From a phage: a stretch of 64,000 nt of DNA. The position numbers were made by a program. This document shows, piece by piece, positions 50,301-56,300 of the stretch; position 1 is the first letter of the stretch, and each line of letters opens with the position of its first letter. The stretch lies in sequence record PZ674595.1, one strand, 5' to 3'.

Positions 50301-53300
50301 AGGCTGGTATGACCTTGGCTCGTGTTGTTGGGATTTTTGTTTTTCCAGTCGGTTCGGTACTTGGTTATTTCTGACGGTTGTTAGTGCATATGCATTGACC
50401 GTCTTTTCGTAAGCAATTCATGTAACTAGAAAACAACTTGTTTTAACAAATAACAAAAGGAAAGCACATGTTAGGTTTATTCAAAAAGAAAACTCGTAAA
50501 GCTGTTATCGAGGTCAAAAAAATGGAGAACCGAGATGCGGTTGAAGCCACCGTGTGGGGCGCGTACATGATCTCCTATGCCGATGGCACATGCGACGCAA
50601 AGGAAATTTCCATTCTTGAGAAAACAATTGCAGCTCTGCCTGCGTTTTCTCCGTTTGCTGGTGAGATTGCCCAAATGAGCGCCAATATCCGTGCTCAATA
50701 CGAAGCCTCACCGCGCCGCGCTAATGCCCAGGCTTTACGTGAGCTGGCTGATGTGGCCGGGACTAATGATGCAGTAGATGTACTGTGTCTGTGCCTTGAT
50801 ATTGCCGACCAAGACGGTATTGGCGAACAAGAAGAGCTGGCACTGAAAAAGATCGCACAGGCGCTTCAGTTGTCACTGGATGCTTATCTCTAATGCTTGA
50901 GAGATTCCGGCTTGTGACCGTCATTGCTCTTCTGGTGATGGCGGTGTTGGTGGATTTTACGGGAAAGATGATGTCTGTCATTTCTGATGGCGTCCTCATT
51001 GGTCTGGCGATCTACTTCGCTTATCCGCTAGTCCGTAAAGCAACGTGTTAATGACAAGGGCCAAATGGCCCTTGTGTTTCGTTGACCGAAATAGAGAGTT
51101 TGCACCTTTACGTTTAGCTTGCTCCCCTTTTATGCCACATCACAATAAAGCCAATAAGAAAACAACTTGTTTAAGCATTAGGAAAAACACATGTGCAAGA
51201 AATGCAAAGCGATAGCTGATGAACAAAACGCCTTATTCGAAGAAATGGATGCTAATGAACTGGTCAAAATGTTAGCCATTCTTCGAGGAATAGAAGACGT
51301 TTCCATATTTGAGAGAGTGGTTACAGCACTTAATTTTGAGTCCACCTTTGAAGAGCCAACTCAGGTTGTAGCTTTAGCACATCATTTCGGTGTTCATTAT
51401 CTTGCTGAAAAAGAGCGCGCTGATAAGTTGCAGGCGACTTTGGATATGGTGAGCGAGACTCAACGAACTGATGACACTAACAAGAGTGAGGCGATTATTG
51501 CCAGCAAAGATCGTGAAATTGCTGGGTTTAAATCCTCTCTAACGATGTTGATGTCTGCGTTCAATCTTATGTCTTCTCAGGCGGGTTATAAAATGCCATC
51601 ACTAAACAGCGATGATCCGATGGCCGTTCGTCAGCTTTTGGGAGCAATGGCCGACCAACTCGACGACACAAAGAGTCGGTTTGAAGACATGATGCGTGAG
51701 TTAAGCCATCGACATAACCTCGCAACACAGCCACACAAAGCCTTTCAAAGCTCTAATTGATCTGATATGGCCGCATGATCGGCCATATTGTGTTGATAAA
51801 AAACAAGGATGAAAAATGGCATACGGTACAGGGATTTACAACAATAAAGGAATTAACGTTACTGGCTTCCTTACTCCTATTTTTTTTCTTGATCGATTTA
51901 CTGCGTCATCAGGCTCTAAGACGTACTCCAATCCGCCACCGGGTAAATCGCTACATGCCGTGTGGTCATTGATGCCTCTTAACAACGACAACTACATTAA
52001 TTTACCTGTTCCAACAGTTACTATTAATGGAAATACGGTTAGTTGGTCAAATTTATATACGGGGCTTGGTTCTTACATATACACATACTGGGGATAATTA
52101 TGTTCGGGATGTCAATTACACAATCAGATGGAAGTTTGTGGATGAGTCCAGAATTTACTCCGCAAAATCTGATTAATAAAGGGACAATGTCTACATCTAA
52201 AGGTTCTGTTTTTCAAACATCAATCCCATCAAACAAATCATGCTTTTTCTTCATAAAAAGCAGTAATAAGGCGAACATGATGTTTATTCATGAGCATAGT
52301 AACGGATACAATGCTCTCAGATTGCATCAGGTAAATGGTAACCCCGGAACAATAACAGTTTATGCTTTTTCTGATATGGTGTTACCACATTCTGGCTATG
52401 GCATTGCCATGTATAACAGCGCAGGCGCAATGGTGTATCACGGTGAGATGATGCCCCTTGATGCGAAACTTATCACTATTTCTGACCCTCAATTTACAAT
52501 AGATATGGGGTATCCATGTGCGGTAATGCCTGCTATGGTTGGGGTATATAACTATAGACGAACCGATTACGACAGACCTGTCTATGTAACAATGACAGGT
52601 GCAACTGGAAACCAAGTATATAACGGTCAATGGTATTCCGGTAATGTCACATGGGATATTAAGAAGATTTATACAAACAAAATTCTGGTGATAAATACCT
52701 CCAAGTATGATTAGCCAATGCCTTTATTTGAAGGATTGCCTGTTTATTTCTATTTAGTACCTTTTCATTTTTGAAATAATTGCACCATTAAACAAATCAC
52801 TTCTTAATGGTGCAATTATGAATACAGCCCTTTCCATCATCGACGATGCCAACTCAAACACTGCTATCGACTATCGGCAGGAAATGAACGTCATCCACGA
52901 AATTGTGGCCGAGTGCGAGAAAGAGATCGCCTTCATGTATCAGGTACACGACTTCGTTTATGGCGACGAACGCCACAACATGATTAATCGCCTGCTGAGA
53001 CTAAACCATCGACCAGATGAAGATCGCTCGCGTTTAAATCGAGGTTGGTTGGATAAAGTCGATCTGGAATGGGTGAAACAGAATATTTGGGCCGAGTACT
53101 GGAGGAAGGTCACGGACATGACTAACGTTTTGCTGATCATGCCAGCTTCCCGTCGAGATGAGTGGCGCGAGCAGTTTATAGAGGGCAAACAGGAAGTCAT
53201 CAAAACTGACAGAACCGGCTACCAGATGAAGGTTAAAGAGTTCGTTGGTGTACCGGAGTTCAAAGCAGAAACGGTCATACCCACGATGCTTAATTTGCTG

Positions 53301-56300
53301 AATGACAGGCACAAATATCTCTCTGAGCGCGTGTATGGCTTGTTTAAGGCGCTGAGTCCTGCGCACAAGACAAATAAGACAAACGGTTTCAGCGAACGTC
53401 TGATAATCGCTGACTGCATTTCTGATTTCTGGCGGGACAGCGTTAGTGTGAACTATCGCAAAGAGGACTATATCGACGATCTGCGTGTCTTGCTTCATTT
53501 CTTCGCGCACAAAGAATTTATTACCATCAACCGCACTGCTGAGGTGCTATCAGCTGCGTATCGGGCAAACGACTGCCAGACCGGTGACTGGATGAATGTC
53601 GATGGAAATCTAATGCGCGTGAAGATGTTCAAGAACGGCAACGTTCACTTTGAAATACATCCTGACGTGGCCTGGAAGTTGAATGAGGTGCTGGCTTACA
53701 GTATGCCTGCTGCAATCCCCGCGCCATGTCGCACCGCGCCAAAAACACGGGCACCAAAGCAGTTCGGGTTAATCCAGAAGACGATCTCCGTGCCGGTTCG
53801 CACTGCGCTTCGTGACGGGCGATTAAGCAAAGACAAAGGCGTATGGTACTTCTCTGATTCAGCTCTCCAGAAGTCGCAGGTGGAAGAGCTTGAGCGCACA
53901 CTGAGCTTCATTGGCGGCGTGCAGGAGAAAAAGCACTGGCAGTTCCCGTATGACATCGGCCATACGCTAAATACGATTGTGGCTACCGGTTTAATACCGG
54001 ATACAAAATCACACCAGTTCTACCCTACCCCACGCTTGATTGCTGAGTACGTTGCCAGAGCCACTGAATTGAAGCCTGGTGAGAAGCTGTTGGAGCCTCA
54101 AGCCGGACGTGGGGATCTTCTGGCCTATATTAACGCCGATCTGGAAGATGTTACTTGCATAGAAATCGCACCTCTCTTCGCTGATATCCTGCGTGGAAAA
54201 GGGTATACGAACACGATTTGCTGCGACTTCATAAAGTGGTCTGAGGACAACGCAGGTTATCAGTTCGACAAAATCGTTATGAACCCGCCGTACTCGCTTG
54301 GTCGTCATAGAGAACACACGCTTGCTGCGCTGGGGCATCTGAAAGTCGGCGGGCGTCTTGTAGCAGTATTGCCGGGCACTGCGCCAATACTGGACTGGAT
54401 GACGATGGATAATTACGTTTATGCCAGAGGGAAGTCGTTTACCAACGAGTTTGAAGACACAGGGATCACAGTCAGCGTATACGTTTTCAAACGCGTTAAA
54501 TGATAGGTAAATACTTACTTAATTTTTGTAAGAATGTAGTTACTAAACGATAAGAGAAAACACATGAACAACCTCCAGTTAGAGCATTTTAACGTCACAG
54601 GCCATTCTGATTTTCCTTTCAAGTTTACATTGAAAGGTTATGCAGAGGATGCGGTAGGCCAGATCATTATTGATAAAGGCATCGTTAAGTTTGAGGGGAA
54701 TTTTGATGAATCCGCGAAAACATTCATAGACTTCGTTGCCAAACGTTGGAGCGAGCAATGGAAAGACCTGGAAAAGCGCGCTAGTGAGTTTGATCGGTTC
54801 ATGGATGCAATGGATACAGCAAAAGAGGCTCTTGCTGCCGGTACTCCGTTAGATCTGGAGTCACTTTTCAACGGCGAAGTGGCCTCTGCGATGTTCGCCA
54901 CCATGTTCGCGGGTGAGTTCGTCCGCAGCGGTGCCAAAAATTACCTTGAGCTGGATTACAACGTCCCGGAAATTGGCGATTTCGTCGTTACCATCCAACG
55001 CAAAGAAGGTAAGACGCCAGGTGAACGCGTCGCAGAACTTGAGGCTGTTGTGGATCAGCGTAACGGAGAGTGTGACCGTTTGATCAACGAGCTTCATGCA
55101 CTTCGAGAAGAAAGAATATGCGCGGGTAGCAATACACGTAATGCAGCGGATATCTACTTCCAGTTAGTTGAGGAATGCCAGATTCCACCAGGCGGCTCTC
55201 TTGTCGATTACGTCAGACATTTAATGACGGAAGTTAACTCCAGCCATAAAGATGGTGAGGTGCGCTGATGTTTGGCATTGATGCACAGCGTATAGCAGCT
55301 TTTGCAAAAAGCCCTCTTGATAATCCCTTGTCTCGTAGTGAGCAAATGGAGCTGGCAAGGCTTTTTCTTCACATTCAAAAACAGGCAGACGTTTTCAATA
55401 ACATGCCTGATCAACCTATTCTGGATGGTCACATCCAGATGGTCATTAACAGTCATGAGAAAGGCTGGGCTGCAATCGTCCCCTGCACAATTACATACAA
55501 GTTGGCGAAAGAGGTTCAAGAGTTTCGAAAAGTCAGCGTCGAATCAGAGTCTACCAAAGCCGCAATAAACACTCTTATTCGCATGGGGTTCACATGGGAC
55601 GGTGGAGCTTACTGGCAAGCACCTCAACCCATTTTATACGGCAATTAGGCGCTACAAATCCTTCTGCATGAATAAATAAAGGCCATAACTTATGGCCTTA
55701 AATAAATTGTTTTCTACCTTTTCTTATTTGTGAAAATAAACCAGCACTTGGTAGTGCTTATGTAACAGCAAAGAAGAGAAAAACACATGAGTAACAAAAT
55801 CGAAAATCCCGTAGTTCTCATTCACAAGCGCGAGAACCACGACTCCTATGCGGTGGCGATCACCAATGGGAGTCACGATTTTTACGATGGCCTGCTAATG
55901 GCCTCAGTGTCGCCTGATGAGGCAGACAACTCTTTTGCCGTCTTCGCTATGGTTGGTTACTACATGGCTGCTGAAATTGAGAAGTTGCGGGCGCAGAGAG
56001 ACGCATTAGCGGCGGAGAATGCAGCCCTGAAAGAATCTGAGCGAGCATTCGATGCGATGTGTGCCGAGGAACACGGAGATAAGAGTGATGACGGATATTT
56101 TAAGATAGGGCGTACTTTTGCAGATGAACATTATGAAAAATCACGCGTAACAGTAGTTGATGATAGTGATCCCGATGTGATTGCACTGCTGGACGAACTG
56201 GATAAAAGACAGCAACACATCCGACGTCTTGAGCAGGAGAACGTAGAGATGGCCCTAACGCTTGAGAAACTGCGTGTTGAGCTGGAGACCGTTAAACAGC

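Follow-up and report, generated by a model that had tools for sequence, protein, structure and literature searches.

The DUF4942-methyltransferase of an SSU5/pHCM2-type phage-plasmid, a predicted orphan adenine methyltransferase of mobile elements

The gene and its database identity

The DNA analysed here, a stretch of 64,000 nucleotides of the phage sequence record PZ674595.1 (hereafter the window), contains a gene whose product joins a large N-terminal region to a C-terminal NPPY amino-methyltransferase. The genes around this one showed the window to be a piece of an SSU5/pHCM2-type phage-plasmid. An earlier note, made by reading the letters, had proposed an open reading frame (ORF) at 52818-54503. 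The ORF listing of the window bore this out, with a single ORF at 52818..54503 on the plus strand, an ATG start, and 561 amino acids, and the same coding sequence (CDS) is present in RefSeq on identical plasmids. The gene and the parts of its product are listed below.

52818..54503, plus strand: complete CDS of the DUF4942-methyltransferase (ORF call; identical RefSeq CDS; PHROG 6263 over the full length)
52818..53078, plus strand: residues 1-87, variable acidic helical segment (helices 19-48 and 52-62 in the model)
53079..53732, plus strand: residues 88-305, DUF4942 domain, alpha/beta (Pfam PF13708; hhalign to the solo protein)
53733..54002, plus strand: residues 306-395, linker and small alpha/beta sub-domain (charge, conservation, model)
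54003..54500, plus strand: residues 396-561, minimal class-I S-adenosylmethionine (SAM)-dependent amino-methyltransferase core in gamma order (profile and fold matches)
54015..54032, plus strand: QFYPTP, residues 400-405, TP motif that caps the helix (406-416) preceding motif I (alignment, model)
54090..54122, plus strand: motif I, LEPQAGRGDLL, residues 425-435, predicted SAM-binding loop (alignment)
54282..54293, plus strand: motif IV, NPPY, residues 489-492, catalytic motif of exocyclic-amino methyltransferases (alignment)

The RefSeq protein WP_001090447.1 ("DUF4942 domain-containing protein") corresponds to a 100% identical CDS carried by many ~110-kb non-mobilizable IncFIB E. coli plasmids. 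The ORF is a real gene and not a chance feature, given that 557 plasmid records matched it at the DNA level and relatives matched the protein over its full length. The closest phage records were the Escherichia phages CMS-2020a, Cyrano, and PhiR41_1, with 98 to 99.5% protein identity. The copy on S. Typhi pHCM2 is 92% identical to the 561-residue protein, as is the homologue of Salmonella phage SSU5 (92% protein identity), which is annotated as "putative DNA modification methylase" or "DNA methyltransferase". The PHROG 6263 profile ("DNA methyltransferase") covered the whole protein, with residues 1-561 aligned to profile positions 1-548 of 548 (E 1.3e-299). The gene, its family, and the label "DNA methyltransferase" are already catalogued in public databases, and the protein is neither an unusual fusion nor part of a new system. 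The earlier note's view of an unusual, unrecognised fusion was not upheld, as the architecture is fixed, widespread, and catalogued under Pfam DUF4942, PHROG 6263, and the SSU5 DNA modification methylase. A 94% identical copy of the gene was also observed on a metagenome-assembled genome contig labelled "Bacillota bacterium" (JAEWTL010000044.1; locus L017); this contig is probably mis-binned or contaminating.

Protein architecture

An alignment of 96 family sequences served both as the input for AlphaFold2 and for the analysis of residue conservation. The full-length model was confident, with a mean predicted local distance difference test (pLDDT) score of 88.2 and a predicted template modelling (pTM) score of 0.78, and the N-terminal 395 residues modelled alone had a pLDDT of 88.4. 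Residues 1-87 showed a mean pairwise identity of 0.27 and a net charge of about -6. The DUF4942 domain contains a beta-hairpin insert at residues 122-145 that varies between lineages. Within the region 306-395, the linker (306-365) is basic and variable in length, with a net charge of +5, an identity of 0.29, and 56 to 84 residues across the family. The phrog_9133 profile (1259 positions, built from large phage proteins) matched residues 328-560; as this similarity begins at about residue 328, the extended methyltransferase module probably starts there. The DUF4942 core and the catalytic core were equally conserved, with a mean pairwise identity of 0.54 each.

The earlier note had found nothing recognisable in the N-terminal domain. 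This part of ~300-390 residues indeed has no known function, but a known signature can be recognised in it: Pfam DUF4942 (PF13708) matched residues 140-295 with 74 bits against a gathering cut-off of 25 (E 1.7e-20), and relatives matched the full 190-position Pfam profile.

The catalytic core and its target

The motifs LEPQAGRGDLL and NPPY, which the earlier note had located in the last 150 residues, start at residues 425 and 489, i.e., within the last 137. The amino-methyltransferase assignment also stood, with a core of ~165 residues whose motifs are invariant in the 96 sequences. In the TP motif, Q400 and Y402 were invariant, and F401, P403, T404, and P405 were at least 90% conserved. P427, A429, and G430 of motif I were invariant and G432 nearly so, while motif IV showed invariant N489, P490, and P491 followed by Y or F at position 492. 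The TP-capped helix, motif I, and motif IV thus follow one another in the order of the gamma class. This order, with NPP(Y/F) as motif IV, is that of the EcoKI/TaqI-like gamma-class adenine methylases found in the polyvalent proteins of phages and plasmids, as described by Iyer et al. (PMC5512222). Judged from its sequence, the stretch of ~165 residues at the C-terminus is a minimal EcoKI/TaqI-like (gamma) catalytic core. The protein stops 69 residues after NPPY and hence lacks a C-terminal recognition domain.

A Foldseek search of the PDB with the full-length model returned only generic class-I methyltransferases. When the family profile was compared with PDB sequences, the best match was M.TaqI (E 1e-4), followed at ~1e-3 by the rRNA adenine-N6 methyltransferases KsgA/Dim1 and Erm; all of the closest matches were adenine-N6 methyltransferases. 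Pfam N6_Mtase (PF02384) matched 23 of 26 family members, with a best E of 8e-6 and scores of up to 25.8 bits in relatives. Among the PADLOC models, mad2 and Type II MTase matched at 1e-15 and 2e-10, respectively. The core also matched methyltransferase modules in giant phage proteins (phrog_15406 at 1e-19, phrog_11358, and phrog_10691). This module is shared by PHROG profiles of 1,200 to 3,900 positions, and some of the giant phage proteins are annotated as virion-associated.

A target other than DNA appears quite improbable to us. In that case, the enzyme would methylate adenine or guanine in rRNA or tRNA, or a glutamine in a protein in the manner of PrmC, and would reprogram host translation during phage-plasmid development. 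Such a role is consistent with weak matches to the MTS (RsmC/PrmC type), RrnaAD, Erm, and KsgA models and with the label "methylase of polypeptide subunit release factors" on one relative, and the strong conservation of the N-terminal domain would fit a single invariant cellular substrate. However, the best solved relative, M.TaqI, is a DNA enzyme, and the PADLOC values given above for DNA methyltransferase models compare with about 1e-2 to 1e-3 for the RNA models. The TP helix together with NPPY is moreover the signature of the EcoKI/TaqI family (PMC5512222), and the gene is exclusive to mobile elements, where it lies near other DNA methyltransferases and recombination genes. We favour N6-adenine in DNA as the predicted target, to which both the sequence features and the context point.

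The N-terminal half and the DUF4942 relatives

The invariant residues of DUF4942 include W95, W116, R164, S180, H183, T185, N186, D221, W258, D262, H277, and N289. In a profile search of PDB sequences and in structure searches, none of the characterised recognition domains, nucleases, or DNA-binding folds matched the N-terminal half, and the one search made for a solved structure gave no match to its DUF4942 part; these searches did not return a well-known target-recognition domain, the finding that the earlier note had named as contrary to its view. A structural search of BFVD with the N-terminus retrieved only two uncharacterised small phage proteins.

Residues 1-395 were searched against 1.84 billion cluster representatives, and 612 relatives (50% identity clusters) were obtained. 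Nearly all of the best 150 of these were 500 to 600 residues long and included the methyltransferase half. Some representatives of 330 to 400 residues were considered as natural proteins consisting of the N-terminus only, but this was rejected, as they end abruptly in the linker or in the early methyltransferase region and look truncated. From the length of the best relatives and the truncated appearance of the shorter ones, we conclude that the two halves are essentially never separated in this subfamily.

A solo form of DUF4942 exists outside this subfamily. A 281-residue E. coli protein aligned to residues 85-303 with an hhalign probability of 98.9% (E 2e-17). Its gene lies on the chromosome NZ_CM132937.1 (locus L015, 5283-6128) with no methyltransferase nearby, and it is the last gene of an E. 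coli island cluster that comprises Ag43, DUF932, antirestriction, RadC, DUF987, CbeA, CbtA, DUF5983, and DUF957 genes. DNA spanning the DUF957-DUF4942 gene pair was present in 4100 of 5426 complete E. coli genomes. As this form occurs without an adjacent methyltransferase, DUF4942 may have a function of its own. H183, W258, E279, and H281 never vary in the fused family, but the solo protein does not retain them, and a catalytic site common to the fused and solo forms is unlikely because of these differences. L0010 of O157 Sakai (locus L014, 4588-4929) is a 113-residue remnant truncated by an insertion sequence, and it aligned poorly. Published mentions of DUF4942 refer to it as an island gene (L0010 of the SRL/LEE islands; beside rhuM in SPI-3) and assign no function. 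On a Klebsiella phage-plasmid contig, we observed a DUF5983 (YeeW-like) gene (locus L011, 5897-6217) 1.2 kb downstream of the DUF4942-methyltransferase gene; members of the DUF4942 and DUF5983 families also neighbour one another in the E. coli islands.

These relatives bear on the possibility, which we consider unlikely, that DUF4942 acts as a module of its own, for establishment or anti-defence, and that the methyltransferase is a promiscuous one like M.EcoGIX or DarB of phage P1, so that two functions would reside in one polypeptide. DUF4942 might then bind DNA that enters or replicates, or a defence protein of the host, and the methyltransferase would modify any DNA to which it is brought, unlike a sequence-specific Type II-like enzyme. 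The solo gene at the end of the antirestriction-RadC-DUF987-CbeA/CbtA-DUF5983-DUF957 cluster, so frequent in E. coli and with no methyltransferase nearby, is in line with this arrangement, as is the DUF5983 gene close to the fused gene in the Klebsiella phage-plasmid. The high conservation of the DUF4942 core with its invariant polar residues, the catalytic core that lacks a recognition domain, and the occurrence of relatives of this core in giant injected-type phage proteins and in F leading regions also agree with it. On the other side, the solo protein has not kept the four residues named above, the fused form is essentially never split and models as a compact unit, and no evidence of promiscuity was found.

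A related proposal, which we likewise regard as doubtful, is that DUF4942 is a structurally novel establishment module that delivers a methyltransferase devoid of a recognition domain to entering or replicating DNA and thereby gives broad N6-methyladenine protection of low specificity. If this were true, the DUF4942 fusion would amount, within the gamma class, to a counterpart of M.EcoGIX or DarB made from unrelated parts, and it would counter many restriction systems at the same time.

It is extremely unlikely that the protein is a single-chain restriction-modification enzyme (Type IIG-like) with a divergent nuclease as its N-terminal domain. Some phage homologues are labelled "RE endonuclease" or "DNA restriction methylase", and a D262...E279-x-H281 pattern is located on a beta-beta-beta-alpha element. 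Nevertheless, the sole Type IIG match covered residues 456-521 of the methyltransferase core, the acidic and histidine residues are not kept in solo DUF4942, and a C-terminal recognition domain is missing. The breadth of the family in temperate phages would also be hard to square with an enzyme that cuts its own DNA.

Orphan status and proposed function

Relatives with ~30% to 99% identity were found in Enterobacterales, Pseudomonas, Burkholderiales, and phages, those that match over the full length having 30 to 90% identity, and in Proteobacteria the architecture of 500 to 600 residues recurs in prophages, in phages, and in IncHI2 plasmids. Prophage copies lie in early regions, where their neighbours are cI-like repressors, integrases, recombination genes (Erf or RecT with YqaJ), and, in some cases, a second N6_N4 methyltransferase. 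The phages that carry copies infect Aeromonas, Pseudomonas, Marinomonas, and Vibrio and include both temperate and virulent ones. The homologue on an IncHI2 conjugative plasmid showed 31% identity over its full length, and a Dam gene and repHI2 are found in its vicinity. The family was seen exclusively on mobile elements.

We surveyed the neighbourhoods of 80 species-level loci, in which all neighbouring ORFs were clustered and the gene was callable in 75. No neighbour was conserved, the commonest family (integrase) being present in 7 of the 75 loci, and these loci contained no cognate endonuclease, either adjacent or fused, and no specificity subunit. The absence of any conserved neighbouring gene indicates that the enzyme is an orphan with neither an endonuclease nor a specificity partner. 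The protein is, by prediction, a standard and widespread orphan methyltransferase of mobile elements, and the finding is one at the level of annotation.

The enzyme is probably a solitary DNA methyltransferase of the N6-adenine type, and it would mark the DNA of its own phage-plasmid so that the element survives restriction in new hosts. It would be expressed from the DNA-metabolism gene block of the element and would be two-lobed, with the order of the lobes reversed relative to M.TaqI. Motif I would bind SAM, and NPPY would hold a flipped-out adenine for methyl transfer. The DUF4942 domain and the basic, variable linker would supply substrate binding and any sequence selectivity; this assignment is suggested by a core that has no recognition domain, by halves that are inseparable, and by a model that forms one compact body. 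Methylation of the element's own DNA would then render progeny or newly established copies resistant to the restriction-modification systems of new hosts. The protective role is proposed from the example of other phage- and plasmid-borne orphan methyltransferases, for which such a role on mobile elements has been established in other families (PMC7736820, PMC11541004).

Several observations weigh against this assignment. The 561-residue protein itself scored 13.6 bits with N6_Mtase, below the gathering threshold of 20.4, and the RNA methyltransferase families RrnaAD, MTS, Erm, and KsgA scored comparably, so that the choice between a DNA and an RNA target is not settled by sequence. DUF4942 is as conserved as the catalytic core, unlike typical recognition domains, which are hypervariable, and it exists alone, without an adjacent methyltransferase, in most E. 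coli genomes. The element already carries a Dam-family methyltransferase. Finally, the literature on DUF4942, DUF3560, and the pHCM2/SSU5 methylase yielded no functional account of any member.

Enterobacteriaceae commonly harbour both SSU5/pHCM2-type phage-plasmids and IncHI2 plasmids, and elements of either kind can bear resistance genes. The range of hosts that these elements enter could be influenced by the predicted orphan methyltransferase that they share. The family is also large, given the number of clusters that match its N-terminus, and extends over phages, prophages, and plasmids.

Neighbouring genes and the start-codon hairpin

The methyltransferase gene sits within a block of DNA-metabolism genes of the phage-plasmid (nrdAB/thyA/DHFR/Dam/RNase H). 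The genes nearby in the window are nrdA, nrdB, thymidylate synthase (thyA), dihydrofolate reductase (DHFR), an SbcC-like ATPase, and a 3'-5' exonuclease; further genes encode a Dam-family methyltransferase, RNase H, a homologue of the DNA polymerase III theta subunit, and an S24 peptidase. The ORFs that directly flank the DUF4942-methyltransferase gene had no Pfam match and belong to PHROGs of unknown function. The other features located in the window are as follows.

47338-47931, plus strand: phage Dam-family methyltransferase, 197 amino acids (Pfam PF05869, E 2.5e-38)
48880-49527, plus strand: RNase H
52776..52819, plus strand: perfect 16-bp inverted repeat (ATAATTGCACCATTAA / TTAATGGTGCAATTAT) (sequence; RNA fold)
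57748-57999, plus strand: DNA polymerase III theta (HolE) homologue
58475-58864, plus strand: short S24 (UmuD/LexA-like) peptidase
58902-60002, minus strand: apbC (mrp), host-type housekeeping gene
60160-62193, plus strand: metG (methionyl-tRNA synthetase), host-type housekeeping gene

The Dam-family gene stands in a co-directional block with the DUF4942 gene, which gives the element two different predicted adenine methyltransferases. The RNase H, HolE homologue, and S24 peptidase genes share the strand of the methyltransferase gene. The G+C content around apbC and metG was 0.50 to 0.51, compared to 0.43 to 0.46 in the flanks, and the apbC-metG stretch looks like a captured chromosomal segment.

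The 3' arm of the inverted repeat covers the Shine-Dalgarno-like bases GGTG as well as the A and U of the start codon. Its RNA fold had an energy of -20.6 kcal/mol (z = -6.25), and the repeat occurs once in the window. The hairpin may occlude the ribosome-binding site and have a role in translation control or as an operator. The repeat was absent or weak in the pHCM2, Klebsiella, and Providencia homologues, and the hairpin was accordingly rejected as a conserved regulatory element of the family; any regulatory role would be specific to the lineage.

Adenine methylation is known to mark the DNA of phage P1 at its pac site. That methylation by the DUF4942-methyltransferase is likewise regulatory or developmental, i.e., a mark for packaging, for the timing of replication, or for the choice between lysis and lysogeny, is in our view very unlikely. 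The position of the gene in a replication and nucleotide-metabolism block of a phage-plasmid is compatible with such a mark, and the strong lineage-specific hairpin over the ribosome-binding site and start codon suggests controlled expression. However, the separate Dam-family enzyme could fill such roles, and the hairpin is not conserved. Moreover, the family is spread across unrelated phages, prophages, and IncHI2 plasmids, which differ in their life cycles and share no conserved neighbours of the gene.

Comparison with known systems

The protein shares with M.TaqI and EcoKI-like enzymes the order of TP-capped helix, motif I (EPxxGxG), and NPPY as well as the class-I Rossmann fold. M.TaqI came out of the profile search as the closest relative of solved structure; the similarity is weak. 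M.TaqI has a C-terminal recognition domain, whereas here none follows the core, which is instead preceded by the 395-residue N-terminal DUF4942 region. The usual architecture of the EcoKI/TaqI-like family, with a C-terminal or separate recognition module, is therefore not present here.

YdcA, a protein of 187 residues from F-type leading regions ("putative adenine-specific DNA methylase"), showed 31% identity over residues 400-517 (E 2e-14). It is a bare core with NPPF and without DUF4942, and its gene adjoins ssb, psiA, and antirestriction genes. On the IncF plasmid OZ026787.1 (locus L008, 4506-6477), ydbA, which encodes a DUF3560 protein of 453 residues, is followed by ydcA after 47 bp. We considered YdbA-YdcA as a split version of the fusion, and half of this idea was rejected: YdcA is homologous to the core, but YdbA is a DUF3560 protein with an hhalign probability of 0.7% to the N-terminus. 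DUF3560 might be the partner of YdcA and thus the counterpart of DUF4942 in the present protein, the two domains being unrelated in sequence.

With the DarB-type polyvalent methylase-helicase, only the EcoKI/TaqI-like methylase module (TP motif, NPP(Y/F)) is in common. In the DarB-type dyad, the methylase is placed between an N-terminal LPD36 and a C-terminal SF2 helicase (PMC5512222). The 561-residue protein has neither LPD36 nor an SF2 helicase; it ends with the core and matched no helicase family. Phage P1 was not among the tblastn matches at E 1e-5 or better.

The solo DUF4942 proteins of E. coli/Shigella islands and Salmonella SPI-3 are homologous to residues 85-303 and are likewise encoded on DNA derived from mobile elements. 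They differ in their length of 281 residues, in having no methyltransferase domain or neighbour, and in several residues that are invariant in the fused family.

M.EcoGIX and M.BceJIII are single-strand-specific plasmid methyltransferases that shield entering DNA from restriction, and M.EcoGIX belongs to the beta class with DPPY (PMC7736820). Homology to M.EcoGIX was rejected, given its beta-class DPPY and the gamma-class NPPY found here. As is predicted for the present protein, both are orphan adenine methyltransferases of mobile elements, and they provide the functional model for its possible role.

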